A stretch of 64,000 nt of DNA from an uncultured Gammaproteobacteria bacterium (GCA_964650355.1 CAZYTL010000001.1:4018-68017); one strand, 5' to 3'. Counted from the first letter of the stretch, positions 4,519-55,224 are shown. Notes: generated from the sequence alone by a model not told the origin. Numbers and translations are program-made.

Positions 4519-4521
4519 AGG

Positions 4522-9924: not shown

Positions 9925-9927
9925 AAT

Positions 9928-11001: not shown

Positions 11002-11234
11002 TACGAAGCACCTCCTTTCTGACCTTTAGTTACCTGATTAATTTTTCCGCTACTAAGGTCAAAGGTGTATTCGCTGTTCACATCGAGTCCGTATTTGAAA
11101 TACTTATTAACAAGCCAACGATCTTTTTGTGATTCCAAAGCCTGAACAACTAACTTGTATTGATTAATCATCTGCATTCGCGCTTGCAGTTCATCGAGAT
11201 CTGATTTGTCTAGTTTTTTAGTTTTTTTGAACAT
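11001..11234 (-). CDS. small phage protein
   Basis: 77-aa ORF whose start and stop overlap the neighbouring genes by about one codon. Confidence 0.35.
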   Translation of the reverse strand: MFKKTKKLDKSDLDELQARMQMINQYKLVVQALESQKDRWLVNKYFKYGLDVNSEYTFDLSSGKINQVTKGQKGGAS

Positions 11235-12549: not shown

Positions 12550-12553
12550 AGTT

Positions 12554-13999: not shown

Positions 14000-14005
14000 A
14001 GTGTT

Positions 14006-14713
14006 TTATGACCATCTGATATTTTTCGCTTGACCAATGAAGACGCTTGATGGTTCTTCGTCTTCACGGTCTTTTATTTGCTGTAACAAGGCATGCGCCT
14101 CAACAACCTCTTTTTCAGCGTCTTTTTTCCGACCTGGAGCCTTCGCTAGACAGGTACCCAGGGCCAATTTAAGAACTGGCTCATCCATTTCTTCAGGAGT
14201 AATCGGTTCATCGGTTTCTTCAACCAATCGAACAGGTCGGCGTTTATAAAATAAATCGATAACTTTCCCTTCAATTTCCAGTACTGGGTCCAAAAAGTAT
14301 TGATCGCCTATGACGGCGTAGACTTTTTGCCAACGCCAGTCTGTATGACTTGATGGATGTACAACGTCGAGAGAAGGATGGAATGTGGGAGCTATTTTGT
14401 TATCAGATTTTCTGCTTAGGTACTGGTTTTCAGTTACTTTATGATGCTCCTCACCATCAACAGACAAGAAAACCATTCCACCTGGCTTATAATCGAATGG
14501 TAAAAAGTAAGATTCTTTTCCGGATCCATCCGGATTAAGTTCGGTCAGTTGAGTGGCATGTTTGCTTAAAAACTTCCACCGTGCAAAATTGCAGGCACGG
14601 ATAATCGCTTTGTTAATCCAACGATCTTTAGCGGAATTCTTCCAGAAACCGCTTACTTTTGAAGCAGTTATTCTGGCATTTAAATCTTCTCTAAATTCTT
14701 GTAATTGCATAGT
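14006..14713 (-). CDS. phage structural protein
   Basis: The ORF track extends it to 14824, overlapping the upstream gene. The internal ATG at 14713 (MQLQEFREDL...) gives a non-overlapping gene. Confidence 0.35.
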   Translation of the reverse strand, partial: TMQLQEFREDLNARITASKVSGFWKNSAKDRWINKAIIRACNFARWKFLSKHATQLTELNPDGSGKESYFLPFDYKPGGMVFLSVDGEEHHKVTENQYLSRKSDNKIAPTFHPSLDVVHPSSHTDWRWQKVYAVIGDQYFLDPVLEIEGKVIDLFYKRRPVRLVEETDEPITPEEMDEPVLKLALGTCLAKAPGRKKDAEKEVVEAHALLQQIKDREDEEPSSVFIGQAKNIRWS

Positions 14714-14720
14714 TTTTTGT

Positions 14721-16385
14721 TTACTGGAGATTTCCAGTTGCTCGATAATGTTGAACATATGGCAACAGAGCGTTCCCCGGACAATTAGTTGCCGATTCAG
14801 GTACTTCTCCGTGACCCAAAACACGTTCTTTAGGGATACTTCGCTCTTGTCGCAACTCGTCGAGAACTGTTTGTAGGGTTTCTAATTGAGCTGCCGTAGG
14901 GGTTTCGTTGTTGTGGAAGTTGCCGCACAGGACTACACCAAGGGATCGGTAGTTCATCTTGTTGCTATCGCAGTGAGCTCCTATTACGTTATCTGGACGA
15001 CCTAAGATCAGGACTCCATCGCCATCAAGAGCACCGGCAACCCATTTGTGATATCCAATATCATCCCAACCGTAGCCGATATGAGCTTTTTTTATTGTTT
15101 GAAAATAGGTGTTGTCTCTGGGAGTTGCCGAATGGTGAACAATGATAAATTCTGGATAGTTTGCCTTGTTGTAGACCTCGATGTCTTTATCGCGCGTTGT
15201 AACTCTGCGCTCACGAGTCCAGGCAATCACTAACTGAGGCGCGTATTTACCAGAATCCTGGTTGTAGTCCCAGATATATTTAGTGTTTCCATGTCCCGAA
15301 AAATAGTTTTCTAAAATAATTCCAAGCTTGCTTCCTGCCCAGCCTGGACGATCAATAATTTCCTGAATTACTCCTTTTAACTCTGGAGACTCGTAAACAC
15401 TCTCTGCTGTCCAATGATCTCCTATAAGCACTCCTGCTTCAGCGTGGCCAGTATTCCATTGGATTTCTGAGGCTGTTTTACTTCTCAGAGAAGGTCTATT
15501 TGATCCATCTGATTGAAAAACTGCAGCATCGTCTTCAGCAATACCTTTTATGAGAATGTTGGCATGACCGTTATTCTGTATTGGGCTTGTTACGAGAAGT
15601 TTGGCTGAGAGAATCTCGACACCCTGAGGTAGAGAGATCGGGCTAAAGATAAATCCTGCATCATTGGCGGATTCGTCAGGATCTAGGCTACCATCATCAC
15701 CAAATGTGGTCATATTATTTTGATAACCACTCGGATACCAGGTTGTTTTGTAGTCTTCCTCTCCATCTCTGTCGTTACCTTGAATAAACCCAACAGTTAT
15801 TTGTTCGTGTAATCCCTGAGGCAGATAGTAGATTTCCAACTCTGCTTGATAACCATCCCCTTTACTGAAGTCAAAGCAGGTTTTTGATTGGTCTGAAGGG
15901 CTACCATCGTCTTCAATAACAAATGCAATAGCGTTCCCAGGTCTCCAGTTTGTTTGGGCAACAAGTTCTTCCACGATTAAGTTCAAATTAGGTGTTTGAA
16001 CCCATTCGTGGACATTCCATTTTTTGATGATGTCCCAATCCACAGAATTAACTGTTTTATTTCTCGTTGACGGACGGTCAGAGCCATCCGACTTGAATGG
16101 AGCGGGATCTGACTCTTTTATTCCCTTTATTTTTAGATTAACTGTAAAATCGCTACCATCGCTTACAGCAGGTCTTAGTTTTAGTCTTGCAAGAAAAATT
16201 TTTGAGAACTGAGGTATATCAATCCCCCTAAATCTAAAGGCGGCTGTTTGGGTTCCTGTATAGTTTCCAAACGTTATAATCCCTGACGAATTACCATCTT
16301 TATTCCAAGTTGAAGAGCCAGCTTCCTTGCCATCGTCAGAGTTCTGTTGAACTGTTGCTGTTATCTTCAGTACTTGGTTTGTCAT
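14721..16385 (-). CDS. tail-associated peptidoglycan hydrolase (N-acetylmuramoyl-L-alanine amidase, Amidase_2/PGRP domain) with N-terminal repeated modules
   Basis: C-terminal IIVHHSAT...GYH...GAHCDSN...ATNCPG carries the Zn ligands of Amidase_2. The N-terminus has two copies of a (F)xSDGS(D/N)RPS(T/L)R(N/S)KT module, also present in ORF 16676..17692. Confidence 0.7.
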   Translation of the reverse strand: MTNQVLKITATVQQNSDDGKEAGSSTWNKDGNSSGIITFGNYTGTQTAAFRFRGIDIPQFSKIFLARLKLRPAVSDGSDFTVNLKIKGIKESDPAPFKSDGSDRPSTRNKTVNSVDWDIIKKWNVHEWVQTPNLNLIVEELVAQTNWRPGNAIAFVIEDDGSPSDQSKTCFDFSKGDGYQAELEIYYLPQGLHEQITVGFIQGNDRDGEEDYKTTWYPSGYQNNMTTFGDDGSLDPDESANDAGFIFSPISLPQGVEILSAKLLVTSPIQNNGHANILIKGIAEDDAAVFQSDGSNRPSLRSKTASEIQWNTGHAEAGVLIGDHWTAESVYESPELKGVIQEIIDRPGWAGSKLGIILENYFSGHGNTKYIWDYNQDSGKYAPQLVIAWTRERRVTTRDKDIEVYNKANYPEFIIVHHSATPRDNTYFQTIKKAHIGYGWDDIGYHKWVAGALDGDGVLILGRPDNVIGAHCDSNKMNYRSLGVVLCGNFHNNETPTAAQLETLQTVLDELRQERSIPKERVLGHGEVPESATNCPGNALLPYVQHYRATGNLQ

Positions 16386-16650
16386 AATCTTTTTTGTTGT
16401 TTTTAACAGGAACGTCTAATTTGACGTTAATTCTGGCGTTACTTTTAACTCCAACCAGCTTCATGATTCTTCTGATTGCAGCTATAGTTGAACCACCTTT
16501 GCCGATAAGAGCGCCGGCATCCTGGTTGTCTAAGCGAACGATTAACAAGACACCCATTTCATCTACCTTGCGTTCAACTGCAACACTTTCCGGTTTATTG
16601 GTTATTGCTTTGACTATTTGTTCTAGTAGAGCTATATCGCTTCCTTGCAT
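16336..16650 (-). CDS. KH-domain RNA-binding-like small protein
   Basis: GALIGKGGSTIAAIRRI is the KH GxxG loop, in a KhpA/YlqC-like 104-aa protein. Confidence 0.55.
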   Translation of the reverse strand: MQGSDIALLEQIVKAITNKPESVAVERKVDEMGVLLIVRLDNQDAGALIGKGGSTIAAIRRIMKLVGVKSNARINVKLDVPVKNNKKDYDKPSTEDNSNSSTEL

Positions 16651-16675
16651 GGTTTGTTCACCTCCTTTTCATTTG

Positions 16676-17692
16676 TTAAATAGCATTTGGTTCTATTGTT
16701 AGTAACAGTTCGGCTGCATTTGCGGCTCCACTGTTAAAGTCCCAAATGTTTTCATATTGATTTGCTGGACTGGCATCATCCTCAATTGACAAAGCCAACG
16801 CTTTCCCGTCAAATTCTGCTTGCTGGATAATTTCATTTATTACTGAAGCTATGTCAGGAGACTCATACCAAGTGTTTAGAGCCCAATCTTCTGCAATATC
16901 CCAATCCACCCCAGCAGTCGTTTTGTTTCTGGTTGAAGGTCGATCACTCCCATCACCAGCGAATGTATCGGGGCTTGCTTCTAAAATTCCTCTGATTTTC
17001 AAAGTTGGCCGTTTAGTAGAATTCACAGCCGCTTTAACTCGTAGGATGGCACTTGTTACCTTGGCGTTGTTGGGAATGAAGGCTCGAAGGAATCTTAGAC
17101 CAGCATCACAACTGCCAGTGTTATCGTTGCCAATGCTTACTTGATTGGCAGTGAAGCCATTGGGATACCAGGTTGTATCGTAGTCTTCCTCGCCATCATC
17201 GTTGTTTCCCAATATTTTAAGTTTTGAGATGATGACCTTATCAAGTTTCGGGTCTAGTTCTGAAGGCGTTGCGAAATCTGTAGGATTTGATCCAGAATCT
17301 TTTGGTAAACCATTACTATCGAAGGCTACAAGATTGTTTTCAATAGCGCCGCTGACTCCAGCATGAGCGACTGGGTCATCCATGTCGTGTTGCCCAGGCG
17401 TTGCAGAAATAACCACCCAAGCAGAACCGTTATAAGTGTAAATTTTGTTTTCATCTTCTACCCAGCAGGCAAAGCCTTCGTTTGGAGTAGTGAAGATCCA
17501 AGTAGAGCCATTAAATTGTGCTATATCGTTGTCATGACCAGCCCATACTCCAGTGGCAGATCCGCCGATTAGATATCTGTCTCCTACTGATTCACCCCCT
17601 GGTGGAGCAGTAAGATCTTTATCGATTACAGAATCCTGCCAGTCAAGCATTTTCAGATCCGTAGCTGATTTTGCACTATTAAATTTGGCCAT
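16676..17692 (-). CDS. tail fibre/spike-like protein sharing a module with the amidase protein
   Basis: GEEDYDTTWYPNGF and GDGSDRPSTRNKTTAGVDWDI are paralogous to segments of ORF 14721..16385. Confidence 0.45.
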   Translation of the reverse strand: MAKFNSAKSATDLKMLDWQDSVIDKDLTAPPGGESVGDRYLIGGSATGVWAGHDNDIAQFNGSTWIFTTPNEGFACWVEDENKIYTYNGSAWVVISATPGQHDMDDPVAHAGVSGAIENNLVAFDSNGLPKDSGSNPTDFATPSELDPKLDKVIISKLKILGNNDDGEEDYDTTWYPNGFTANQVSIGNDNTGSCDAGLRFLRAFIPNNAKVTSAILRVKAAVNSTKRPTLKIRGILEASPDTFAGDGSDRPSTRNKTTAGVDWDIAEDWALNTWYESPDIASVINEIIQQAEFDGKALALSIEDDASPANQYENIWDFNSGAANAAELLLTIEPNAI

Positions 17693-18811: not shown

Positions 18812-19978
18812 TTAGAGCGAGCCGACACTCATGATTGCGTGACGCTTCTCTTGCTCCATTTGCAGACCACATTCTGTTAGGTATTCATCAACCTGACTGT
18901 CTTCACCAGGGTTTTGACGGTTAGTCAAAAGCTTAGTGTCACGATTGGTCAGGTAGCGGTATGTCAAAGCCTCCATATCTAGACCAACGGCATAGTTACC
19001 GTAAGTCGTTCCAATTAAGAGTGGATGCTTGATGATGTGCAGAGTTCCATGCGGAGAGTCGTAAGTTACGATCCTTAATCCATAGGCTTTAGTAGGGTTA
19101 ACTACCTGGAGTTTCCCTTTAGCCCAACCATTAATCATTGAAACAACTGCTGCGGATGCAAACAGATATTTCTCAGTATTTCCGTGAGCGAAGAGACTCT
19201 CTAGCCATGAATCAAATTCTGATTCTGTGTCAACATTGGCGGTTGCATAGGTTGCGATTCTTCCAAGAATACCGTTAGTAAATCTTTTCGGATGCGTACC
19301 AGAAGTAATGACTCCTTTTTTACCAAACATAAAAGTACGCTCGATATCGACATAGTGTTCGATACCTTTTTTGCGCCTTTGGTAATCAAAGTCATTTTCT
19401 TTAACCCAGCCTTGAGTATTTCTAGCAGTTTCAGTAATACCCACTGGAGTTCGGAAGATCTGACAGTAGTTTGATACTTCGGCAATCGTAGTCGATTTGA
19501 TATCGCGCAAGCCCGCACCTTCTTCATTGGCGTTACCAATGAGCCAAACGTCTCCAACTGCAGAAGCAGCGGATCCAGTTGCCCCACCTAACTCAGCACC
19601 TACTGTTACAGTATTTGCGTCAACTATTGCTGTCACTTGGAAGACCCATTTTTGAGCAGCGACTAAAATTATGTCGCCAACTTGTAAGTATTGGGATTGT
19701 CCAGTGATAGTTAAGTTACCTCCGTCAGGATCAATCGTGCTGGAACCCGTCAATTGACGTTTTCCAAACTCATCTTCAAACCATTTGAATTCTGGATCTG
19801 AAGACTCTCTTTTTTTCAGAGCTTCACCTTCGCCGGTTGCCGGATCTTTTCCTGCGTTCGTCAGAATCGCTAAGAGAGGATATCTGTTGACATCCAATAG
19901 CGATACAACATCCGCCACGTCATATTTGCGTGTTGCACCTACATTACCTGTACCTCTAATTCCTGTTGCTGATGGCAT
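18812..19978 (-). CDS. major capsid protein (likely HK97-fold)
   Basis: 388 aa, immediately downstream of an acidic scaffold-like gene. Size and composition fit a major capsid protein. The call rests on position, without motif support. Confidence 0.5.
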   Translation of the reverse strand: MPSATGIRGTGNVGATRKYDVADVVSLLDVNRYPLLAILTNAGKDPATGEGEALKKRESSDPEFKWFEDEFGKRQLTGSSTIDPDGGNLTITGQSQYLQVGDIILVAAQKWVFQVTAIVDANTVTVGAELGGATGSAASAVGDVWLIGNANEEGAGLRDIKSTTIAEVSNYCQIFRTPVGITETARNTQGWVKENDFDYQRRKKGIEHYVDIERTFMFGKKGVITSGTHPKRFTNGILGRIATYATANVDTESEFDSWLESLFAHGNTEKYLFASAAVVSMINGWAKGKLQVVNPTKAYGLRIVTYDSPHGTLHIIKHPLLIGTTYGNYAVGLDMEALTYRYLTNRDTKLLTNRQNPGEDSQVDEYLTECGLQMEQEKRHAIMSVGSL

Positions 19979-22043: not shown

Positions 22044-22412
22044 TTATTTTTTAGAAGACATTTTGCGGCGCATATATAAACGCCTTTCACTGCTTGGGGA
22101 TATCATCTGAACAAAAGGGAGGCTACTTGAGTGATTCAAAAAATGATTAAGGGCGTTTCTGGCTATTTCCACATCTTTCCAATAACTGATACTCACCCAA
22201 TTCTTCCCAGATTTGAGAATTTCACATCTGATAAATCCATCTTGCTTTCTGAAGAAAGCGTATTGAGCCTTTTTAACAGCCTTTAACAAAGCTTCATCAG
22301 TGATACCTTCTATAGGGCTGAATTCGTAAAACTCTATAGCCATGTTTTTATTCATTTCAAGGCTAATTGTAGCATAAATGCTAGTTATCGTCTGTAGAGT
22401 TATTGTCTGCAA
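22044..22412 (-). CDS. hypothetical small protein
   Basis: 122-aa ORF with a vague ABM/Dabb-like alpha+beta look. Not assignable. Confidence 0.3.
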   Translation of the reverse strand: MQTITLQTITSIYATISLEMNKNMAIEFYEFSPIEGITDEALLKAVKKAQYAFFRKQDGFIRCEILKSGKNWVSISYWKDVEIARNALNHFLNHSSSLPFVQMISPSSERRLYMRRKMSSKK

Positions 22413-22439
22413 AAACCTACCCTTTTAGTCAAGGGTAGT

Positions 22440-22655
22440 ATGCCAAAATATAATGTTAGAAAAAAATTCGGTAAAAGACTGAGGTTCCTTAGAAAGGAGG
22501 CTCAATTGTCCCAAGAGGAGTTGGGTTTTAAAGCCAACATTCACAGGACATATATTGGTTCGGTTGAGAGGGGAGAACAAAATGTTTCCCTGGACAATAT
22601 TTACAGACTGGCCAAAGCTCTTAAAGTCGAAATGAAAGAACTATTCGCATTTTAA
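22440..22655 (+). CDS. XRE-family (Cro/C1-type) HTH transcriptional regulator
   Basis: LRFLRKEAQLSQEELGFKANIHRTYIGSVERGEQNVSLDNIYRLAKAL is a canonical XRE helix-turn-helix. It is convergent with the retroelement RT, and its stop lies 4 nt from the RT stop. Confidence 0.75.
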   Translation: MPKYNVRKKFGKRLRFLRKEAQLSQEELGFKANIHRTYIGSVERGEQNVSLDNIYRLAKALKVEMKELFAF

Positions 22656-22658
22656 TTA

Positions 22659-23696
22659 CTAATTAGTCTGAAAATAGTGGGCGTGGTTTTTTATTTCTTG
22701 AGACAGCTTATAACCATTGCAATGAGATAAATGCCCCAAATAAGACTGTAGTGCTTGTTCCAATGCTTCTGGTGGCAAGATTCCATCTTTTATTTTTTGA
22801 GAGGTTTCTGCTAACTTTCTGAAAATTCTTTTCTTTGTTTTTGTTCTAGGTAGAATGTACTTGGGGAAAATTACATAACCCAGAAAATCAACACCAAGAT
22901 AATAATCTACAATATGTATCTTGTTTGGATGTAGAGAAAGCTTTAGTTCTGTGGCAAGAAAACTCTCCAGTTCTAAGAGTATTTTTTCTAAATATTCACG
23001 ATTATCAGACAATACTGCAAAATCATCCGCATATCGTATGTAATGTTTTACCCTCAGCTTGTGCTTCACAAGCTGATCCAGCGGATCCATGTAAATATTG
23101 GCGAAAAGCTGTGACGTTAGATTCCCAATAGGCATACCACTATTTTGATTTGGAGACTTAAAGCTTGTGATTATCTCTGTTAAGAGGTTAACAAAATCAT
23201 CGTCTTTTATCTTTGTTCTCAGAAGTTTAATCAATATCTGGTGGTCAACATTGGCAAAAAACTTCTTGATATCACATTTTAGTACCAGTAGTTTTGAGGT
23301 ATTGTTTTTACTGGCTTTTCTGGACATTTTTATGAAAGCCTGAACAGCCTTATGGGTTCCTTTTCCTTTTCGGCAGGAGTAGGAGTGAGGGTAAAAAGTC
23401 GGATCAAAAAGTTCTTCCAGCACTTTGCTGGTAAGGTGGTGAACCACTCTATCTTTTACACAGGCCTTGTGAATATGACGAACCTTAGGATCTCTAACAT
23501 AAAACTCCTGATAGCTACCATGACGATAGGTTTTTTCCTCCAGCTCTTTGTGCAAACTAAATATATTATCTTCTAAATTTCGCCCGAATAACTGAACGTC
23601 AGCTTTGCTTTTCTTTCCTTTGATAAATTCTTCCCATGCCTGGAATAAATTCTCAAGTGTTATAATCTCAGTGTAATTACTATGCCAGATTCTCAT
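22659..23696 (-). CDS. diversity-generating retroelement (DGR) reverse transcriptase
   Basis: RT motifs are present: motif 2 SYSCRKGKGTHKA, motif 3 LKCDIKKFF, motif 4 MPIGNLTSQLFANIYM, YADD, and thumb FLGY. Motif 4 reads IGxxxSQ as in DGR RTs rather than QG as in group II introns. At 345 aa it lacks X/En domains. Avd and a TR/VR pair lie alongside. Confidence 0.85.
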   Translation of the reverse strand: MRIWHSNYTEIITLENLFQAWEEFIKGKKSKADVQLFGRNLEDNIFSLHKELEEKTYRHGSYQEFYVRDPKVRHIHKACVKDRVVHHLTSKVLEELFDPTFYPHSYSCRKGKGTHKAVQAFIKMSRKASKNNTSKLLVLKCDIKKFFANVDHQILIKLLRTKIKDDDFVNLLTEIITSFKSPNQNSGMPIGNLTSQLFANIYMDPLDQLVKHKLRVKHYIRYADDFAVLSDNREYLEKILLELESFLATELKLSLHPNKIHIVDYYLGVDFLGYVIFPKYILPRTKTKKRIFRKLAETSQKIKDGILPPEALEQALQSYLGHLSHCNGYKLSQEIKNHAHYFQTN

Positions 23697-24068
23697 AAAA
23701 GTTTTGAACCGGGCAGGCTTAATTTAGACATACCGGTTTTTCAGAAAACATACGAGCTCTACAAATTCTTTTACCAACTTGTAGCTCATTTTCCTAAAAA
23801 AGACCGGTATGCTATCGGGCAGAAAATCGAAAATGGGATACTAGGTTTAATTGAGGATATTATCACCGCAAGCCAACTATCGAAGTCTGAAAAAGTGCCT
23901 ACTTTGCAGAACGCTAGTATAAAGCTTGATGTGCTTAAAGTTCTCATACGATGTTGTAAAGATTTAAAGATTATTGATAACAAAAATTACCTCCTACTTG
24001 AGTCAATGCTACAGGAAATAGGTAGGATGCTTGGTGGCTGGATTAAAGCATCTACCTATAACTCCTGA
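23682..24068 (+). CDS. avd: Avd (accessory variability determinant), four-helix-bundle protein
   Basis: 128 aa. FPKKDRYAIGQKIENGILGLIEDIITA and the C-terminal EIGRMLGGWIKA closely resemble the TIGR02436 four-helix-bundle / Bordetella phage Avd pattern (EVGRILGSWIAR). It is encoded divergently from the RT, and the two 5' ends overlap by 15 nt. Confidence 0.75.
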   Translation: MPDSHKSFEPGRLNLDIPVFQKTYELYKFFYQLVAHFPKKDRYAIGQKIENGILGLIEDIITASQLSKSEKVPTLQNASIKLDVLKVLIRCCKDLKIIDNKNYLLLESMLQEIGRMLGGWIKASTYNS

Positions 24069-24108
24069 TTTGATTTGGGGCAGTTTGTTTGTGCAGTCAG
24101 AGATAAGA

Positions 24109-24240
24109 CTACAGTGACACGGAAACCAACGTTGTCATTCGAGTTCGCCGGATGATTCCAATTGGCGTTGGCGGCACCACCATTGTCGGAGTTGCCAACA
24201 ATGACACGGTTAGACTCGCCGTCATCACGTTTCGCATTGC
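24109..24240 (-). repeat. DGR template repeat (TR)
   Basis: About 130-bp near-copy of the target gene's 3' end. On the coding (minus) strand it is adenine-rich (encodes NRVIVGNSDNGGAANANWNHPANSNDNVGFRVTVVL). The ORF 24056..24310 spanning it is regarded as non-coding template. Confidence 0.8.
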
Positions 24241-24611
24241 TTACTTTCTTTCCTGAAAGGGTATTAAACCTTTCATTATTACCACTGGCTTCTTTAACGT
24301 ACAGTTTCAAGCTTTTACTTCTTTACCAAGATTGTCCTTAATTTCTTAAGAACTCTCTCCTGTATTTTATTTGGCTCAGGTTACCCCAAGGCCTTCAAGA
24401 GTAAGCAAGTAGTTTTATCTCTCCTTAGTCAGCACTCTCCTTATAGCCGTAACCACAAGGACTCTGGCCTAGCTCTATAGAAGAGCGACTTTGTGAAATA
24501 CAGGCTTACCCGTATTTTCATTAACAAAATCTAACTTGAAGTATAAAGAAGGAGAGCGTAAAAAATCAAGGGTAAATGCTATTTATAGACTTCATATTGA
24601 AGATTGGTAAT

Positions 24612-24642
24612 TTTTCAAAAAAAGCGACCCGCTTCGCGGGTC
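24612..24642 (-). terminator. GC-rich hairpin / rho-independent terminator just 3' of the VR
   Basis: gacccgc-ttc-gcgggtc forms a 7-bp GC stem. On the minus strand it is followed by gcttttttttgaaaa. It lies about 50 nt beyond the target gene stop. Confidence 0.6.
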
Positions 24643-24688
24643 AAGGGACCAAGAATCAAGAAACCAAAAGAACCAATAATTTAAGAGA

Positions 24689-26632
24689 TCAAGTTCCAAG
24701 AACTACAGTGACACGGAAACCAACGTCGTCAGACGAGTACGCCGGAGGAGCCCAAAAGGCGTAGGCGGCACCACCACAGTCGGAGTCGCCAACAACGACA
24801 CGGCGAGACCCGCCGTCACCACGCGCTTCAGTATTAGTCCACTCGTATGTGTTGGTAGAACCCCAACCCTCACGATTTGCCAATAAATTCCATTCAACAG
24901 CTTCAAGCATCCTTACATCGGCTGATGATGGTAAACCAATTTCACTAAGAAGTTCACGTTTATTGTTTTCAATAGCTCTGTGTGCATCGTCCCAGGAAAC
25001 ATTAAAACGGTCATCAATCCCTAGTCCTTCACTTACTGGCGTTCTATCATAGTGTTCACCATAAGAAGGTTTTTGCATGGTTTCTACAGCCACCCATGTA
25101 CCTGGTAATTGAGGAAGCTCCATTCTGCCATCTTTTGCTAATCCCCAGAACCATTCTTCAAGGTTTCTTCCAACTCTATGATCTTCTCTTTCCTCGCTGG
25201 ACAAAGTTTCATATCTACGCCAGTTCGGATAACGACGTTGGATTTCATCCAAGAACCTCTCCTGGCCGTTTCTCTGGAGTTCATCCAAAATGCCAATATC
25301 AAGTTTAGGGATATATCTTAACTCAAATCCGAGACGTTCAAGATTTCTTTGAACCTCAGGAGTAACTTCTGCAGGTAGTGGTGGAACTTCTACATTTGTA
25401 CCTAAAGCTTCATTCCAAGCATCTTGCTCCTGAGATACTTCAACCGTTTCCCTTTGTCTCTCGGGAACAGCAGTCGAGCTTCGATCAAAACCACGTCTAG
25501 GAGAAACATTTTGAGGTGCAACATATTCTACGTGGCGAATCAATTCTTCAAGCTTTTGTTTGTCAACATCAGAATCAAGTTTATTTGAATAGTAATAACG
25601 GAGAGCAGCTTGAAAAGTTTCGTTGATATCACCACTATAAAACCTGAGAATAAAATCTCTAACCCTTCTGGGTTCCATACGGTCGTCATACGTAAAGGGT
25701 TGAGGTTGATCGGCAGCTATTCTTCTACCCTTAACCAGCTCTTTTGCAGCCTTATGAAATTCTTTGTATTTTCCTAAAATTGAATCTATCCCTGGAATTT
25801 CCTGTAGCTGCTCTGGTTGAAGAGCGTAGTCTTGAGAAACCAAGAAATCTTCCGGCGAGACACCTTCTTCCTGAGGAGCTAAGGTGAATAGAGCATCAGT
25901 TGAATAAGAAAATGTATCATCAGGTAACTCAGAAGGAGCTTTGAGATATACCCAACGCCTTAACTGTGCAGGATCTAGTGGTTCACGACCAAAATATCCT
26001 TTCCCGGGGGGATTCATAAGAGCAACTACTTTGGTAGTTTCTTTACTAACAGGAATCGACTCTGATGCATCTTCCGATAAAACAACTGACTCTCCACGAT
26101 TAATTGCATCTAAGACTTCGTGAAGTCTGATTACAATATTTGGAGCAGCTGAATTAAATTCATCCAAAATAATTACCTTGACCTTACCGTCTTCTTGCCT
26201 CAAACCAGAAGTAACTTTTCCGTCAGCGAATATATACTCAGGATCATCTGCACTTCTTTTGTCCGGATTGGGGATATATCTGCCCATTAGATCCTCAACA
26301 TCGGTTGCTCCGTTTAAATTAGCGTAATGTACTTCCCAACCCAAATCTGCCGCCATTTTTCTAACAGTAGTAGTTTTTCCTATGCTGGTTCCACCCTCGA
26401 TTAATATCGGATCTCCCTGTAGCCAGCTGACGGCTATATCCTTTTGCAGACCAAGTGAAAATTTATCATTAATATAGTCAGCGTATTGTTCACGGCTAGG
26501 TACAAAATGCCCCCCATCATTTTCAGCTTTGGGTAAGCGGACACCTAAGTAGGCGACAGTGTCATGACTCTCCTCAACAGGATATTCTGGTGGTGGCGTA
26601 AATTGGTGTCTTTCCATAGATTCGTCTGGCAT
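24689..26632 (-). CDS. DGR target protein: MoxR-like AAA+ ATPase with C-terminal C-type-lectin/FGE-like variable domain
   Basis: Walker A ILIEGGTSIGKTTTV, Walker B KVIILDEFN, sensor-1 VVALMNP, and RR Arg finger. The C-terminal ...SRRVVVGDSDCGGAAYAFWAPPAYSSDDVGFRVTVVLGT has the CLec-type VR signature ending GFRV. Confidence 0.75.
   Translation of the reverse strand: MPDESMERHQFTPPPEYPVEESHDTVAYLGVRLPKAENDGGHFVPSREQYADYINDKFSLGLQKDIAVSWLQGDPILIEGGTSIGKTTTVRKMAADLGWEVHYANLNGATDVEDLMGRYIPNPDKRSADDPEYIFADGKVTSGLRQEDGKVKVIILDEFNSAAPNIVIRLHEVLDAINRGESVVLSEDASESIPVSKETTKVVALMNPPGKGYFGREPLDPAQLRRWVYLKAPSELPDDTFSYSTDALFTLAPQEEGVSPEDFLVSQDYALQPEQLQEIPGIDSILGKYKEFHKAAKELVKGRRIAADQPQPFTYDDRMEPRRVRDFILRFYSGDINETFQAALRYYYSNKLDSDVDKQKLEELIRHVEYVAPQNVSPRRGFDRSSTAVPERQRETVEVSQEQDAWNEALGTNVEVPPLPAEVTPEVQRNLERLGFELRYIPKLDIGILDELQRNGQERFLDEIQRRYPNWRRYETLSSEEREDHRVGRNLEEWFWGLAKDGRMELPQLPGTWVAVETMQKPSYGEHYDRTPVSEGLGIDDRFNVSWDDAHRAIENNKRELLSEIGLPSSADVRMLEAVEWNLLANREGWGSTNTYEWTNTEARGDGGSRRVVVGDSDCGGAAYAFWAPPAYSSDDVGFRVTVVLGT
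24703..24834 (-). repeat. DGR variable repeat (VR) at 3' end of target gene
   Basis: Aligns base-for-base with the TR. Every mismatch (about two dozen) falls where the TR coding strand has A (plus-strand T), for example TR AAC codons becoming S/R/D/C/Y/F/P codons. An identical 3' block (cgttggtttccgtgtcactgtag) acts as an IMH-like end. Confidence 0.8.
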
Positions 26633-26640
26633 AGTTTTTC

Positions 26641-27048
26641 TTAGCTTTGATATGTAATACCTGCTATTTCAAGAATCCTAAAACCTGATTCTTGGGTTTT
26701 CTTAAGAGCAGCTTTAGTTAATACATAAATAATTGTAACGCCTTTATAAATTGGTGTTACCATCTGAGATTTCAGATTGAACTTATCATAAATCTCAACC
26801 TGGCCTGTGGGGTACTGTACCGCAAAATCATATAGGTCTTTAGGCAAAACATCTTTAATCACCACAAAAGACTTAGAAGCTTTTTCAACTTGTTTAAATA
26901 AATCTGATGTATCAACTGCTTGTCTGAACTCGCCTTCACTCAATTTTTTTATAAAATCCTCAAGCTCATTTTCGTCCTTGGCGATCATGAGTGAAACCTC
27001 TTTTTGTGAATTGGCGAATTTTAGAAAATCTTTTATCGTATTTGTCAT
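26641..27048 (-). CDS. hypothetical protein between the AAA+ and vWA genes
   Basis: 135-aa ORF packed tightly between the two genes. Confidence 0.35.
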   Translation of the reverse strand: MTNTIKDFLKFANSQKEVSLMIAKDENELEDFIKKLSEGEFRQAVDTSDLFKQVEKASKSFVVIKDVLPKDLYDFAVQYPTGQVEIYDKFNLKSQMVTPIYKGVTIIYVLTKAALKKTQESGFRILEIAGITYQS

Positions 27049-27065
27049 ATATTATTCATAGTATA

Positions 27066-29162
27066 CTAAAAAGTGTCGTAATTGGCGACCACTTCTCTGA
27101 TAACGTCTGCTAATTTATCGGACATTTCCCTCACTCCTATATTTGCCACACTATTTGGATAATATCTGCCTACGTGATCTGTGCCGGGACCAATGCCTAA
27201 CCCTATCAATTTCTGATCTGTATTTTGCATTATTTGATCAACTGTTTTACCTAGCTCGAATTCCGGTCCGGAATGAGCGCTTGATTCTTCAGGAAGACCA
27301 TCAGAAAGAACAAACAGGAATTTTTCTGCTGATTTTTGACGGGCCAAACGTTCCGATGCTTGTTGAACAGCCCAACCGTCATCATTGTAAGCTGCAGCAG
27401 AGCTGTCTACCTCCTGGAGCATACCTCCCATATGTTCCCTAACTTCACGACCCATATCGTGTCCGAAAGGTTGATATTCATATAACCTATCATTAAAACC
27501 CAAAACCTCCGTGTTGATTGAAAGCCTATTAAGAACTTCTGCTAAGACAATTGCAGCTCTAAAAGTTTCCCTTATTTTTTGACCTCTCATTGAACCGGAT
27601 AAATCAACCAACAGACTAATTGCATAATCTTTCTCCTGAGGAATTTCCCGTTTCTGCCAGGCTCTACTTTCAACAGGTGAAATACCTAATGCTTTTTCCT
27701 GCATTCTTCGTTTAATGTCGATACGTTTTCCTGACTTAAAACCTGTCTGCCACTTCTGAGCTCGTCTGGCTACAAAAATTTCTCTCAAATCCGCTTCTAG
27801 AGTGTCAATAAGCGGGAGAACATCCCTTCGGTATTCTTCATAGATATTTTCATCTCCGCGCAAAGCTTTTTCAATTAAATCCTTAAATCGCTTCTGATCC
27901 GGAGTTTGCTCTGGTTTCGTTTTCCCTTCCTGTTCATCGTCTGAGGCTGAATCCCTATCTCGTTTTGTTCCTTCTACGGCTTCTCCACGCTGAGCCTGCT
28001 TTTCCGGATTGTCTGAAAGTTTGCCTTCGAATTCTTCATTAACTTCTCGCTCAAACCCCTGTAATGCTTGCTGTGCTTTCTCTGCCAGCTCACGTTTGAC
28101 ATCTTCAGGCAAAGAGTCAATATAGTCTTTTATTTTTTGTTTTAATCCCTCAGACAAAGAGTCAAGATCAATAGCTCTGGGTTGCCCGCTACCTTCCTGC
28201 TCAGCTTGGTTGCCTTGCTGAGCATTTTCAATAGCTTCTTCAAGCTCTTTTTGTTCTTCTTCTGTTAGTGAATCTGCCAACTCCTGAGGGAGTCCTTGTT
28301 GTCCTTCTCCTTCGCCACCTCCCTGCATATCCTCCATAAATTCCTGCATTTCCTGATCTTGCATATCCTGTTCAACCAACTTCTGAAATTCCGGCCATAC
28401 CTCATCCCGATTAATTTCATAGCTGACATTAGCGTACCTTCTGATTAAGTCTTCACTTTCATCTGCTTCGTGTTTTGAAGGGTATCGTAGCCAGGAATCT
28501 CTGGCACTTTCTAGCGTTTGACTAACCACCGCTTTTACTTCTTCCGGCAAATCTTCACTCAGTGCCCCAAATTCTTTTCCCTGAGTTTCTCCATACCACT
28601 GGCGTATATACTCAAAACCTGCTTGCATGAATCGAGGAGTATACCCCAGCTGGTCGTGAGCTTTTTCTTTAGCCTTGCCTTCAAAATCCAGATCTTCCTG
28701 ATATGCAATATCCATCTGATCACGAAAGCGGGGGTAAGCTTCTGCCACAAAATTATTTGTTCGAGGATCTTCAATGGCATTCATCATAAAAGAGAACCCT
28801 GGTTGTCTCCAGGTTTCTGTGGGAATGTCCTCAGTTCGAGATACACGCCTGTGACCGCCCTCATGAGAAATAACAAAACGTAAGTAGTCCATATCCTTCT
28901 GAAGCAGGTCTTGGGGGTCGATGCGGATTTTATTTTGTCCAAAATCCCAATGCCAGCCGGCACCTGGTTGGTTAAGCTCGACAGGTATCTGAAAATCTTT
29001 ACCTATAAAATAGGCCAATGAAGAAAGAATTTGTTGCCTATGCTGAATTTCCTGCTGTTGGTCAGGAGAAAAATGTCCGAGTATCTCGGTTTGATTATCT
29101 TTACGTAGAGCGTGTAGGGTTGTCTGTGATTCTCGTTCCATAAAATCAGTTTTTTGTTCCAT
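27066..29162 (-). CDS. vWA-domain protein with N-terminal HExxH zincin-like motif (partner of the MoxR-like ATPase)
   Basis: C-terminal MIDAS DLSGSM (DxSxS) plus FVLSDG and a downstream Thr/Asp pattern of vWA domains. N-terminal FVISHEGGHRR is an HExxH motif. Long acidic coiled-coil linker. Confidence 0.7.
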   Translation of the reverse strand: MEQKTDFMERESQTTLHALRKDNQTEILGHFSPDQQQEIQHRQQILSSLAYFIGKDFQIPVELNQPGAGWHWDFGQNKIRIDPQDLLQKDMDYLRFVISHEGGHRRVSRTEDIPTETWRQPGFSFMMNAIEDPRTNNFVAEAYPRFRDQMDIAYQEDLDFEGKAKEKAHDQLGYTPRFMQAGFEYIRQWYGETQGKEFGALSEDLPEEVKAVVSQTLESARDSWLRYPSKHEADESEDLIRRYANVSYEINRDEVWPEFQKLVEQDMQDQEMQEFMEDMQGGGEGEGQQGLPQELADSLTEEEQKELEEAIENAQQGNQAEQEGSGQPRAIDLDSLSEGLKQKIKDYIDSLPEDVKRELAEKAQQALQGFEREVNEEFEGKLSDNPEKQAQRGEAVEGTKRDRDSASDDEQEGKTKPEQTPDQKRFKDLIEKALRGDENIYEEYRRDVLPLIDTLEADLREIFVARRAQKWQTGFKSGKRIDIKRRMQEKALGISPVESRAWQKREIPQEKDYAISLLVDLSGSMRGQKIRETFRAAIVLAEVLNRLSINTEVLGFNDRLYEYQPFGHDMGREVREHMGGMLQEVDSSAAAYNDDGWAVQQASERLARQKSAEKFLFVLSDGLPEESSAHSGPEFELGKTVDQIMQNTDQKLIGLGIGPGTDHVGRYYPNSVANIGVREMSDKLADVIREVVANYDTF

Positions 29163-29200
29163 AGATCTCTTAAATTATATAAAAAATCTGTGAAAAAGTC

Positions 29201-30763
29201 TTACAGAAACTGAGAGGTATCAGCATACATATTCATAATTGGTTTTTTGCTTGCCTTGTGCTTTTTCTCCTCCTCAACATTTACAAAATTAATCAAATAA
29301 ATAATTGCTGCCTTGGTGAGGCACATAAGATTAATTGTCTCTTGGAAGAGAGTATCAGAATCAATGTTGTGCTTATCTGTTTCATCATCAACGCTTGTTA
29401 TTAATGAATCGAAGACTATTAGTCGTCTGTGGGTAAGTGCATTTCTGATTTGTTTTATCTTTTGATATCTATTGAGTTTGAAATCCCGGTATATGTCATA
29501 TAAAGCATAAAGGCTTAAATTATCAGAATTGAGTATTTCTTTCCTGATAACTTCTTTATGTTCCCAGACTGAGGCTGTGGAAAAGTAGATATTATTTTCC
29601 TTAAGCCTCAGATCGTAATAGTCGTTAATAAATACAGCAATTTTGTCCAATATATTGAAAGCATCCTTAAATGCCGATTTTAATAGACCTACATAAAGAT
29701 TGAATTGTGAGTAGTCCAGGGCGTATACATAGCTGGTTCTCTTGCTAATACTGTCGAAAGTCTTTTGTTTGTATTGAGATTGAACCAGATTGAGCCTGGC
29801 TACTGCGTAATCTTCTTTAATTTGATTGAGTTGTTTGGCGAAATTATAGAATGTGTCGTTGTCGTCAATTTTTGTGATCAGCCTGATAAATACTGGGTCC
29901 TCAATTGCGGCTTCACAAAAATCATCATGGATATGGAAATTGAGAAATAGCTTTTCCCTGCTGCAGAAATCTAAGTAATACTGTTCGAATTTAGTCAACC
30001 CTTTTGTTTTATATTTGGGATGCTTGATACTTTTCTTAAGTAATGATTTATCTTGAAAAAGAGATTCGATGTAATCAAGTTCGCGCTCGAAAGCTTTTTT
30101 AGCATCAGTACCTCCAACTTGTACCAGCTTCGGATCGTCTAAAACTGATTTGATATCTTGGTAAGCGGTTACATATATTGAAGCCCGATATTTGTCAGAG
30201 ATATCAGCAAATGCCCGAAGTGCTTTGGCTCTGTTTGCTACTGCCATTGGGAAGTTTTTGTTCAAGTCGAGCGCTTCGTTGTAGGCAGTTATGGCTTCAA
30301 TCCCTCGACCTAATGTGTCTAAACAGTTGCCTAGATTAACTAACACTTGTGTCTTTAGGTTTGGGTCATCAAATTCATTATTTGTCGCTTGAATTAAATG
30401 TTGTTTGGCTTGTAATAGATTTGTACTTTGCGGTATTGTGCGATCTACAGCGCCACCCATTCTTTCTGTAAGCTGATATAAACTTGTATACCCATTTGCC
30501 AGACAATAGTGAAGGTAAGCCTTCGTCTTGCCATTCTTTGTTTGTATTAGTGTGGATTCACCAAAATCAATACCTTCTCTTATGATATTTTCGTCCCTGA
30601 GATCGTTTCCTATATCAACTAAAAAGCCAGGTTTATAAAATATCAGTCTCTTGTCATCAGGGTTTTCCTTTTCGAATTCAGTTAATTTTTCAAGTGCCTT
30701 TTTTGCTTCTCCTGAATTGATAAGTAGTGAGATTGTTTGGAATGAGAGAGTCTTTTTATCCAT
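29201..30763 (-). CDS. TPR-repeat protein with C-terminal HEPN-like (Rx4H) domain, Abi/defence-like
   Basis: The N-terminal half reads as TPR-like helical repeats (AITAYNEALDLNKNFPMAVANRAKAL...). The C-terminal region contains IRNALTHRR (R-x4-H HEPN catalytic motif). Confidence 0.5.
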   Translation of the reverse strand: MDKKTLSFQTISLLINSGEAKKALEKLTEFEKENPDDKRLIFYKPGFLVDIGNDLRDENIIREGIDFGESTLIQTKNGKTKAYLHYCLANGYTSLYQLTERMGGAVDRTIPQSTNLLQAKQHLIQATNNEFDDPNLKTQVLVNLGNCLDTLGRGIEAITAYNEALDLNKNFPMAVANRAKALRAFADISDKYRASIYVTAYQDIKSVLDDPKLVQVGGTDAKKAFERELDYIESLFQDKSLLKKSIKHPKYKTKGLTKFEQYYLDFCSREKLFLNFHIHDDFCEAAIEDPVFIRLITKIDDNDTFYNFAKQLNQIKEDYAVARLNLVQSQYKQKTFDSISKRTSYVYALDYSQFNLYVGLLKSAFKDAFNILDKIAVFINDYYDLRLKENNIYFSTASVWEHKEVIRKEILNSDNLSLYALYDIYRDFKLNRYQKIKQIRNALTHRRLIVFDSLITSVDDETDKHNIDSDTLFQETINLMCLTKAAIIYLINFVNVEEEKKHKASKKPIMNMYADTSQFL

Positions 30764-31059: not shown

Positions 31060-32967
31060 CTAGTTAGTAAGCATCTTTCCTAGTCCAGGAATTTTTCCGA
31101 TTAGTTGTCGAATTTTGTTCTTATTCGCTACTAGTGGCTCATTGGTCGTTTCTTTCTGTAAAGTGCCGTTAGAAGGCGACACAGGGGCTACAACTTCTGC
31201 CTCTGTTGATGTTTCATCTGATTTTTCCTGTTTTTCCGTTATTTCCGGACCAAGTAGAATATCGACATACTGGTCAAGGTCTAACTCTTCCAAAATCATC
31301 TTTTGCAAAGCTCGCTTACGAATCAGCCACTGCTTTATACCAATTGGGTCACTTGGGTCCGGCTTGTCCTGGGCAATGAATTTGTCATATAGCAACAATA
31401 TCTGGTTGAGTCTTGCTTGTTTGTCAGGCGGAATTACTGGCTCAACTTCGACAATTGCATCTACGCTAACTTTTTTATCTTCAGATTTAAATTCCTTAAA
31501 ATCAACATTATTTCCTACTATCCTGTAGAGCTTATCCTCGCTGAGGAACTCTCTATTTAACTGGATGAGGATATTAGCCACAGTAGTTAAAGCGTTTGAA
31601 ATATTTTGAGCATTTATGCTTAACCGTAGGTTGCTTTGACCAAGGAGCATTGCAACTTTCCCTAGTGGTTCGCTGGACGACTTTGGTAGCCCCTGCAAAT
31701 ATTCACCTAGCGCCAGAGTCCTCGATATCTCATCTCGCAGCATCTTATCTTCGTTGAGCCCCATCAAACTTATTTCTGGAGGTCGCTCAATAACCACATC
31801 ATCCATTTTTCTGAGCTCCCAAACAGCTCCAGGAGAGAAAATAATGTCATTCTTGGTGATGCCGGTATCTTTACGGATCTTAACTACTGGATCTAGCATC
31901 AGAATTACATCATCCATGCGTTGGTTACGCAGGTCAGCAATCTCCATAATGGTACTTTCAACAGGCTCAACATGACCGGTTGCCCAGAATTCCCAGAGAA
32001 GAGACATATCTGGCAAATCAACAAAGATGTGTCCATTGTTGATATCCAAGTATGGGTTCTCGTCATCCCTAATTACCACTTCACCATTGGCAATAACTAC
32101 CAGTTCATCTTCCTCATAGTCCCAACATTCCCATAACTCCAGTTGCTTCTCTTGATCACTTTTTACAGGCAGGACTTTTTGTTCACCGGTGTCGGCTTTC
32201 TTAAGATCGCCATCAATCTGAGACATTTTTTTGGTGTTTATTTCATATCGTTCTTTTTTCCAATCCTCAACATTCTTGGGGTTACAAAATTCAAGATTCT
32301 TGTATATATGGTTTTCTCCACGGTTTTCTTCTTCTTTTGTAATTTTTTCCTTAGTTTTAACTATCCTGTGGATTAGCCAAGGGCACCCATCCTGCAGATC
32401 CTCTGTTTCTGGTGCCGGCAGGAAGTCCCACAAGTCGCATAGAATCATGGTTGGATCGTCATATAAGACTTTGAATGTTTCATCCGATTTTTTCCTGCTT
32501 TGAACTTTCCAGGCTAATTTAACAATTCCGTTTCCATACAATACTGATGACTCAATCCAGTGGGGAAGCTTTTTGGCTAGTTCAATAATGTCAAAGTCAT
32601 AGTTGACCAAGTCATCCCAAGAAGATAATGCTCTTGACTCTACATCTCTCTTGTCTCTGGGAATGACTCGTGTTTTGCGTTTAGCAGTCGCTAGTCTAGA
32701 TACAACCGTCTTGACGATTTCAAATGCTATTGGGGGCATGAGGCGAGTGTTGTAGGCGTAGTTTTGTTTGTGCTGATAAGCCCGGTAGAGCTTATACATC
32801 CTCAGCCACTTAGCTTGGTATGGATCACGAAACTCTTTTGCCCGCTTAAATCGAGCTTTCCATTTTTTGAGGAGTTTTTCATCACGTTCCGTAGGTTCGT
32901 ATCTTTTTCCTGGTGAAATTTTTGTTTCTTTGACTTTAGGGTTTGGCATAGTAATTTTGGCCAACAA
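31060..32967 (-). CDS. portal (head-tail connector) protein
   Basis: 635 aa, upstream of the head module. The N-terminal RAKEFRDPYQAKWLRMYKLYRAYQ region is interpreted as portal-like, and the C-terminus is acidic. The assignment rests on size and position and is not backed by a motif. Confidence 0.45.
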   Translation of the reverse strand: MLAKITMPNPKVKETKISPGKRYEPTERDEKLLKKWKARFKRAKEFRDPYQAKWLRMYKLYRAYQHKQNYAYNTRLMPPIAFEIVKTVVSRLATAKRKTRVIPRDKRDVESRALSSWDDLVNYDFDIIELAKKLPHWIESSVLYGNGIVKLAWKVQSRKKSDETFKVLYDDPTMILCDLWDFLPAPETEDLQDGCPWLIHRIVKTKEKITKEEENRGENHIYKNLEFCNPKNVEDWKKERYEINTKKMSQIDGDLKKADTGEQKVLPVKSDQEKQLELWECWDYEEDELVVIANGEVVIRDDENPYLDINNGHIFVDLPDMSLLWEFWATGHVEPVESTIMEIADLRNQRMDDVILMLDPVVKIRKDTGITKNDIIFSPGAVWELRKMDDVVIERPPEISLMGLNEDKMLRDEISRTLALGEYLQGLPKSSSEPLGKVAMLLGQSNLRLSINAQNISNALTTVANILIQLNREFLSEDKLYRIVGNNVDFKEFKSEDKKVSVDAIVEVEPVIPPDKQARLNQILLLYDKFIAQDKPDPSDPIGIKQWLIRKRALQKMILEELDLDQYVDILLGPEITEKQEKSDETSTEAEVVAPVSPSNGTLQKETTNEPLVANKNKIRQLIGKIPGLGKMLTN

Positions 32968-35614: not shown

Positions 35615-35620
35615 ATACAT

Positions 35621-39602: not shown

Positions 39603-39611
39603 TCCTAAAAC

Positions 39612-42985: not shown

Positions 42986-43021
42986 CTGTAATAAGTCATG
43001 ATTGAACTTAAAATAAAATAA

Positions 43022-44113: not shown

Positions 44114-44146
44114 ATATCATGAAAATTAAACACGAGACGATATTGG

Positions 44147-44170
44147 GGATTTACTTATGCCTTCAGGGTT
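44147..44170 (+). repeat. right copy of about 24-bp imperfect direct repeat
   Basis: ggatttacttatgccttcagggtt, with 21 of 24 positions identical to 33036..33060. Confidence 0.55.
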
Positions 44171-44185
44171 CTAGTTGAGTTAAAT

Positions 44186-46564: not shown

Positions 46565-46570
46565 ATATTG

Positions 46571-47284: not shown

Positions 47285-47287
47285 AAA

Positions 47288-55002: not shown

Positions 55003-55224
55003 TCAAAGCTCAACAGCACTTTGTTTCTTGGACATTTCACCGGCACTACCTCCATTTTCAGGCATGATTCTTCGTTGTTCGGTCACTTCTTTTCTGAAAG
55101 GTTTCCCATTTTGAATAAAAACTTCAACTCTCCCAAATTTCACCTGACGTATATCTTCAATTATTTTCCTTTCAGCTTTGCTGAGAATTATTTGATTGGT
55201 AGTTTGTTTATTTGTTTGGCTCAT
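55003..55224 (-). CDS. small hypothetical protein
   Basis: 73-aa ORF that overlaps the stop of the large terminase gene. Confidence 0.25.
   Translation of the reverse strand: MSQTNKQTTNQIILSKAERKIIEDIRQVKFGRVEVFIQNGKPFRKEVTEQRRIMPENGGSAGEMSKKQSAVEL

Follow-up and report, generated by a model that had tools for sequence, protein, structure and literature searches.

A probable Patescibacteria-type diversity-generating retroelement that diversifies a MoxR-like ATPase as optional prophage cargo

The stretch of DNA analysed here, referred to as the window, comprises 64,000 nucleotides assigned to an uncultured Gammaproteobacteria bacterium (GCA_964650355.1 CAZYTL010000001.1:4018-68017). Between positions 22,659 and 26,632 it harbors a diversity-generating retroelement (DGR), in which a reverse transcriptase (RT) and the accessory protein Avd are combined with a template repeat (TR) and a variable repeat (VR), the latter being located within the target gene. 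In all likelihood, this element is a complete DGR of the type found in Patescibacteria, the Candidate Phyla Radiation (CPR), which diversifies a MoxR-like ATPase and constitutes an optional cargo of a prophage. A sequence-only reading of the same DNA had already recognized the signature of adenine-directed mutagenic homing, and the adenine-only mismatches, the DGR-type RT and Avd are indeed all present. The same reading missed the MoxR-like nature of the target, the inverted orientation of avd, the CPR type of the system and its location in a prophage.

The repeat pair carries the main weight of this assignment. The TR (24108..24232, minus strand) spans 125 nt and comprises 30 adenines as well as nine AAY codons in the reading frame of the target, while the VR (24702..24826, minus strand) is a 125-bp segment encoding residues 603-644 of the target protein, at the 3' end of the open reading frame and inside a C-type-lectin fold. 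Both repeats align without gaps over 125 bp at an offset of +594, with the minus strand as the sense strand, and all 21 mismatches fall on TR adenines (hypergeometric P = 4e-17), in agreement with the adenine-only pattern that had been proposed. In total, 21 of the 30 TR adenines are altered in the VR, ten of them to G, six to T and five to C. The initially proposed limits (24109..24240 for the TR and 24703..24834 for the VR) identified the correct repeat and were inaccurate at its ends: the outer 8 nt at the 5' edge contain four mismatches at bases other than adenine, leaving 22 of 26 at adenines, and lie outside the true repeat. At the level of codons, the nine asparagine codons of the TR are replaced in the VR by codons for R, D, C, Y, F, A, Y, S and D, and further changes concern K603, D605, E608 and I613. 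The earlier list of asparagine replacements was therefore right with respect to S, R, D, C, Y, F and A, and wrong with respect to proline, which derives from a histidine codon (CAT to CCT). The invariant 3' end likewise exists and measures 25 nt (24108..24132), not the approximately 23 nt first given, and the flanks of both repeats diverge at once. A third copy of the repeat is absent from the 64-kb window, which contains a single VR, and the number of peptides encodable from the TR amounts to about 5e16. In the Logan assembly SRR14802573 (locus L001, SRR14802573_12565), which includes an identical target gene, the short-read contig ends 2 nt into the TR; this break reflects the assembler stopping at the TR/VR repeat.

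The RT (22659..23696, minus strand) consists of 345 aa, includes the sequence PIGNLTSQLFANIY and the catalytic YADD, and features the DGR-type IGNLTSQ motif 4 pointed out earlier in the form PIGNLTSQ. It matches Pfam RVT_1 (4.7e-29), and its closest solved structure is PDB 8ub7_A (155 bits, E 2.8e-44, with residues 9-330 aligned), which is the Brt protein of Bordetella phage BPP-1 according to tblastn (100% identity). Group II intron and retron-type RT structures reach only about 68 bits (1e-17), so that by similarity score the RT is far closer to the DGR prototype than to these enzymes. It is barely conceivable that the RT nevertheless belongs to another class (group II intron, retron, DRT/UG or abortive infection type) and that the repeat arose by ordinary duplication or gene conversion. 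In this direction point the best NCBIfam match of the RT, a group II intron RT with 161.7 bits, the matches to the DRT/UG models of PADLOC, whose generic RT model scores 178.7 bits (E 3.6e-53), and the frequent annotation of GenBank phage relatives as 'retron-type'. The group II match, however, falls well short of its cutoff of 300 and was thus rejected as a classification of the RT, whereas Brt is the closest structure by a wide margin. NCBIfam returned no DGR RT family. Moreover, neither a maturase/X domain nor an intron RNA nor msr/msd was found with the RT, the adenine-exclusive mismatches do not fit an ordinary duplication, and Avd is a DGR-specific partner.

The avd gene itself (23682..24068, plus strand) encodes 128 aa with the C-terminus ...EIGRMLGGWIKASTYNS. 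The previously suggested presence of an Avd-like gene beside the RT holds, given that the protein exceeds the cutoff of the NCBIfam equivalog NF033474 DivGenRetAVD (98 bits against 80) and also matches Pfam bAvd (8.3e-24). The gene is encoded on the strand opposite to RT, TR and target and lies head-to-head with the RT gene, the starts of both overlapping by 15 nt. This inverted position recurs in about 35 related loci, and the order of target, TR, reverse avd and RT is common to about 35 Patescibacteria loci.

Indirect support exists for a DGR that is apparently active, with mutagenic homing ongoing. In two sister loci, L002 and L005, the targets are 90% and 82% identical to that of the window, respectively, and each is accompanied by its own TR/VR pair with mismatches at adenines only. 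At seven of the eight sites that differ among the three TRs, the cognate VR carries the base of its own TR. Changes of the TR at bases other than adenine are therefore mirrored in the cognate VRs, which implies that sequence information has passed from the TR into the VR after the separation of the lineages. In addition, 14 proteins from other samples, 89-100% identical to the target, are near-invariant outside residues 605-636, and their mean entropy amounts to 1.04 bit in the VR compared with 0.083 bit elsewhere. Columns with at least four different residues include 605, 606, 610, 613, 616, 618, 619, 624, 626, 628, 632, 634 and 636, and the variable columns correspond to TR codons containing adenine. 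The expected coupling of VR variation to TR adenines is thereby observed in related metagenomic proteins, namely between samples. The opposing view, a fossil DGR in which the TR/VR pair records past homing by an element that is now inactive, appears unlikely. It draws on the fact that a single assembled sequence cannot show current activity, and on the identity of the TR and VR 3' ends. On the other hand, RT, Avd, target, the leader RNA and the promoter-like site described below are all intact and conserved, TR substitutions at bases other than adenine, acquired since the split of the three lineages, have reached the VRs, the closely related proteins all differ in their VRs, and the SRR14802573 assembly is interrupted exactly at the TR, a behaviour typical of repeats.

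The approximately 470 nt between VR and TR are conserved to a degree remarkable in non-coding DNA and comprise several elements on the minus strand. Directly 5' of the TR lies a leader RNA of about 300 nt with eight helices (24237..24534). In its RNAalifold structure, derived from eight loci, 97.6% of cells are paired compared with 44-52% in slid controls, and compensatory changes affect 28 pairs compared with two to eight in controls; none of 500 shuffles reached these values. Helix 6 pairs 24408..24397 with 24248..24237 and hence ends 4 nt before the TR. The hairpin at 24469..24431 is similar to the one at the 5' end of Rfam RT-7, at 26 bits against a gathering score of 116.8. At gathering threshold, Rfam yielded no RT-motif RNA in eight related loci, and the RT-7 and RT-14 matches of the window are sub-threshold. 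As a covariance model of the leader core, searched against 66 sources, recovered only its eight training loci, the leader RNA is claimed for this sub-clade only; a wider leader alignment (A8) was too divergent for use. A side observation on RNAs near DGRs concerns a Berkelbacteria locus (L032), where an LOOT RNA (Rfam, 74 bits) is found close to the DGR at 14188..14313.

Upstream of leader, TR and RT, a promoter-like site (24540..24569) consists of TTGATT and TATACT separated by 18 nt, both hexamers being invariant in seven related loci. On the side of the VR, a GC-rich hairpin (24625..24643; GACCCGC-GAA-GCGGGTC followed by a T run) starts 59 nt after the VR end and is kept in related loci. 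It looks like the terminator of the target gene, and possibly it serves as the target-site hairpin of the DGR. The gap between VR and hairpin is filled by an array of six to eight YTTGR motifs with a spacing of 7-9 nt (24640..24701), which directly follows the VR and reaches into the target gene, covering its final three codons and the stop codon. Among 33 CPR DGR loci, YTTGR motifs reach a density of 3.6 per 70 nt in comparison with a background of 0.54 (6.6-fold). Array and hairpin together may constitute a target-recognition element, or they may be only a terminator region. Within this arrangement, a transcript would probably start at the promoter-like site near 24540 and would extend through the leader of about 300 nt and the TR of 125 nt into the RT gene and to its end. 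The RT, together with Avd, would then copy the TR RNA into complementary DNA (cDNA), presumably after a priming step, and misincorporate nucleotides opposite adenines; the cDNA would finally be integrated in place of the VR at the 3' end of 24689..26632.

The target gene (24689..26632, minus strand) encodes a protein of 647 aa that combines a MoxR-type AAA+ module, a helical linker and a C-terminal lectin-like domain. The ATPase module corresponds to Pfam AAA_5 (residues 76-226, nt 25955..26407, minus strand), and its Walker A (GKT) and Walker B (DE) motifs are invariant. An AlphaFold model based on 50 homologues has a mean predicted local distance difference test (pLDDT) score of 84.9, and its best PDB neighbours in Foldseek are the MoxR-class activases CbbQ and NorQ, including NorQ-NorD VWA complexes. 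The C-type-lectin/FGE-like domain (residues ~406-647, nt 24692..25417, minus strand) ends in the VR. Its structural neighbours belong to the FGE family (pFGE 7.4; OvoA, EgtB, SenA, PvdO) and further include Mtd (6.4), TaqVP (5.7) and dozens of C-type lectins; Foldseek retrieves the same families, weakly. This lectin module is always C-terminal in its proteins (266 representatives at 50% identity). It is further found as a protein on its own, with a length of about 270-300 aa, and as a tandem in a homologue of 910 aa (P0098). Such proteins are probably the second targets of the loci with two VRs (L027, L032, L033, L035, L040, L047, L050-52, L060, L066 and L067). Neither a transmembrane-like segment nor a signal-like N-terminus was detected in the target or in the products of the two genes upstream of it. 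The diversified protein is not a tail fibre but a MoxR-like AAA+ ATPase of the cytoplasm, and its variable tip has a lectin fold.

These two upstream genes form one operon with the target, all three having the same orientation. Adjacent to the target lies the gene for a protein of 135 aa, p135 (26641..27048, minus strand), which has no match in Pfam, NCBIfam or PADLOC and is always located between the VWA and AAA genes (more than 60 loci). Next to it, the VWA gene (27066..29162, minus strand) encodes 698 aa with an N-terminal HExxH metallopeptidase-like region (HEGGH, residues 100-104) and a C-terminal VWA domain with a DxSxS metal ion-dependent adhesion site (MIDAS; residues 520-524); the protein matches Pfam CobT_C (3.3e-17) and VWA. 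Both HEGGH and DLSGS are retained without exception in 19 homologues of this partner (61-89% identity), and one JGI annotation reads 'CobT/SprT-family Zn metalloprotease'. The gene order of the entire cassette is thus VWA, p135, the AAA-C-type-lectin (AAA-CLec) gene, TR, inverted Avd and RT. At the far end, convergent with the RT, a Cro/C1-type helix-turn-helix gene (22440..22655, plus strand; 71 aa, Pfam HTH_3 1e-14) is kept beside the RT in L002-5, L013, L016-18 and L073 (66-94% identity), non-phage cassettes included, and its product may be a regulator of the cassette. At the other end, between portal gene and cassette, lies a TPR + HEPN (LA2681-like) gene (29201..30763, minus strand; Pfam HEPN_LA2681 1.8e-31). 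It is present only in phage-borne copies and in the cassette-free locus L077, and belongs to the surroundings of the cassette in the phage hot spot, not to its core.

The window is the genome of an SU10-like tailed phage, as is evident from a terminase (55208..56764), a portal protein (31060..32967), a major head protein (18812..19978) and tail-fibre and lysis genes (3448..17692, with the tail-fibre genes at 11218..17692). The cassette sits between the portal and the scaffold/major head genes. Identical proteins, the target being recorded as P0246, are also encoded on a 295-kb NCBI contig, and relatives from IMG/VR measure 54-62 kb. Because a further relative is embedded at 0.97-0.99 Mb of a 1.37-Mb contig, the phage is regarded as a prophage; the window lacks tRNA and tmRNA genes, and neither an att site nor an integrase was recognized. 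In a nucleotide search of 22400..29200 against GenBank phages, only a 113-bp match within the RT was obtained.

A comparison of the portal-scaffold junction in 16 phages with related portals revealed four forms. In L083 and L085-87 (portals 57-72% identical) the junction is empty and portal and scaffold/head genes follow each other within about 3-4 kb, in L077 it is occupied by the HEPN gene alone, and in L076, L078 and L084 it contains the same cassette as the window. In L080 (IMG/VR UViG_3300001594_001562, 14448..17566), the portal of which is 85% identical, it accommodates a different DGR with the order avd-TR-RT-target, an RT of 32% identity, ten of ten mismatches at adenines and a 421-aa target with a weak Fib_succ_major match. 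These four forms indicate that the junction is a hot spot in these phages and the cassette an optional cargo of it, and the empty junctions of related phages imply that virions do not require the DGR/AAA/VWA block. As an observation apart, a second island between terminase and portal (33392..48022, reported as about 22 kb) contains defence-type genes, including type I restriction-modification HsdM (740 aa) and HsdR without an obvious separate HsdS, a SIR2-HerA pair (PADLOC 222 and 607 bits), a DUF2779 protein, a trypsin-like protease, an unknown 792-aa protein and an AbiU2 HEPN gene. At the edge of the window lies a DUF3800 gene (63357..63992), a family known for associated RNA motifs.

Beyond phages, the cassette is widespread. 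More than 400 target homologues were found, and a scan with one genome per species yielded 62 loci, nearly all of which are labelled as Patescibacteria lineages, the labels including Patescibacteria, Gottesmanbacteria, Levyibacteriota, Shapirobacteria and Saccharibacteria. The few loci labelled as Gammaproteobacteria metagenome-assembled genomes look like mis-binning. The cassette order recurs in about 60 Patescibacteria loci, the succession of VWA, p135, AAA, opposite-strand Avd and RT was present in most loci with enough flanking sequence, and TR/VR pairs were found in about 30 loci, where at least 80%, mostly at least 90%, of the mismatches are at adenines and some loci feature two VRs. One copy of the cassette resides between mreB/mreC/PBP2/greA/aspS and mraZ/rsmH/ftsI in the absence of phage genes, one is located near Prim-Pol and terminase genes, and one near a serine recombinase. 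Furthermore, a DGR-less VWA/p138/AAA-lectin trio (49% identical; L006-L008, P0100) lies beside dnaN, hisS and HSP20, which suggests that the trio also exists as a non-diversified cellular module. The DGR-less AAA-lectin protein (P0100) is recorded as an identical copy in 173 collection blocks, of which 23 contigs were read.

These distributions bear on the possibility of a classical phage DGR for tropism switching. Under this alternative, the diversified product would bind receptors or form part of the virion, and MoxR and VWA would jointly serve as a chaperone of virion assembly, a role suggested in jumbo phages and in the Acidianus two-tailed virus. Such a role would accord with the position of the cassette within the structural module, from the portal to the scaffold/head genes, with the jumbo-phage MoxR and metallopeptidase-vWA pair for which virion assembly has been proposed (PMC7824862), and with tail fibres being the target of most phage DGRs. 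It is rendered highly improbable by the related phages that lack the whole cassette (L083, L085-87), by the chromosomal copy in the mreBC/PBP2 ... mraZ/ftsI region, which is devoid of phage genes, and by the DGR-less copy beside dnaN/hisS. Moreover, the target is an AAA+ enzyme without a secretion signal, and the tail-fibre genes are located elsewhere.

The reading preferred here, a CPR-type DGR diversifying a MoxR-like ATPase as optional prophage cargo, permits a tentative proposal for the function of the trio, to which slightly less than an even chance is given: a hexameric ATPase would expose six variable lectin tips that pick a protein ligand, which the ATPase and its VWA/metallopeptidase partner would remodel or cleave in an accessory conflict or sensing process and not in virion adsorption. 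A still more far-reaching combination is doubtful when taken as a whole. In this scenario, the six lectin tips of a MoxR hexamer would resemble an antibody repertoire and, together with the HExxH-VWA protein and p135, would form a programmable recognition device of the cytoplasm, capturing and remodelling or cleaving proteins that belong to competing phages, to the host or to the episymbiont partner. This device would move between Patescibacteria chromosomes and phages, and retrohoming would proceed via elements for which model DGRs offer no description, namely a 5' leader that clamps the TR start and the YTTGR array and hairpin that mark the VR.

Several points weigh against parts of this picture. 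With regard to the DGR, the identity of TR and VR over 25 nt at their 3' ends means that an asymmetry of the classical kind between the initiation of mutagenic homing (IMH) sequence and IMH* is not seen. The GC-rich hairpin lies 59 nt from the VR, compared with about 4 nt in BPP-1, and the promoter and terminator calls are matches to the sigma-70 consensus, which may not be that of the host. The evidence for VR variation comes from comparisons between samples and not from reads within the source population. With regard to the target, a model of the lectin domain alone (242 residues) has pLDDT values of 57-69 over residues ~181-230, a stretch equivalent to residues ~586-635 of the protein, which includes most of the VR. 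As for a function in conflict, PADLOC provided no convincing defence model for the target (a marginal match to mad8, E 4.6e-4, 17.8 bits) and none for the p135, VWA and HEPN proteins. We infer the conflict or sensing function of the AAA-CLec/p135/VWA trio, as we do all functional statements beyond the DGR itself.

According to Paul et al. 2017, as cited in PMC10907252, an AAA ATPase with a C-type lectin domain is the commonest target of CPR DGRs, so that the present element is a member of an already described class. The locus adds constraints on the function of this commonest target. These consist of an ATPase of the MoxR/CbbQ/NorQ class that is cytoplasmic and constantly accompanied by a VWA(MIDAS) + HExxH protein and a small third protein, and of its occurrence as dispensable cargo in a phage hot spot otherwise holding defence-type genes or another DGR. 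Taken together, this pattern points to a role in conflict or sensing and not in adsorption. It further follows that phages carry at least some of the CPR DGRs regarded as 'cellular'. The leader RNA and the array flanking the VR offer handles on cDNA priming and targeting and could improve DGR finders. The prophage-cargo context, the covarying leader RNA and the YTTGR array with its hairpin are modestly new, and the defined MoxR/VWA/HExxH partnership around a variable lectin tip likewise confers moderate interest.

In comparison with known systems, the element resembles the DGRs of CPR and DPANN organisms in its AAA ATPase target with a C-terminal variable domain, apparently in the unusual orientation of avd, in the adenine-biased TR/VR pairs found throughout and in its Patescibacteria-labelled homologues. 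Wu et al. 2018 (PMC5758913) assign 90% of CPR DGRs to a special 'B3' architecture, mention Midasin/AAA matches for the UVR4 class of VRs, whose fold they were unable to assign, and state that essentially nothing is reported on an association of CPR DGRs with phages. Roux et al. 2021 found the CPR DGR clade to be almost entirely cellular (PMC8144416); unlike this clade as described, the present cassette resides inside an SU10-like (pro)phage. With respect to the BPP-1 DGR (mtd-avd-TR-brt), the target is an ATPase instead of a tail-fibre tip, avd is inverted and placed between TR and RT, the structured RNA lies 5' of the TR instead of in the 3' spacer, and no IMH/IMH* mismatch occurs, with the hairpin at its greater distance from the VR.

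A second group of relatives are the MoxR-vWA ternary conflict systems described by Kaur et al. 2020 and known from gammaproteobacteria and cyanobacteria, in which the DGR-diversified domain is situated on the vWA protein and VMAP is the third component (PMC7159879). As in these VMAP ternary systems (PMC7159879; PNAS 2024, PMC10907252), a MoxR AAA+ protein, a vWA protein and a DGR-diversified FGE/lectin domain are united in one locus, all components are cytoplasmic, and a peptidase and other conflict genes are found nearby. In contrast to them, the variable domain is attached to the MoxR ATPase and not to the vWA protein, the third partner is a protein of 135 aa instead of VMAP, neither a VMAP-C domain nor a VMAP-like protein being present in the locus, and the vWA protein carries HExxH. 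Finally, Iyer et al. 2021 reported that group 2.2 jumbo phages encode a MoxR and metallopeptidase-vWA pair with a proposed role in virion assembly (PMC7824862). In common with this pair, CbbQ/CbbO and NorQ/NorD, the window combines a MoxR AAA+ protein with a vWA protein, the AAA fold matching CbbQ and NorQ, and it shares with the jumbo-phage pair a vWA protein with an N-terminal metallopeptidase-like region. Unlike the jumbo-phage pair, which features neither a lectin domain nor a DGR, the system described here possesses both and constitutes an optional cargo that is also found in chromosomes.

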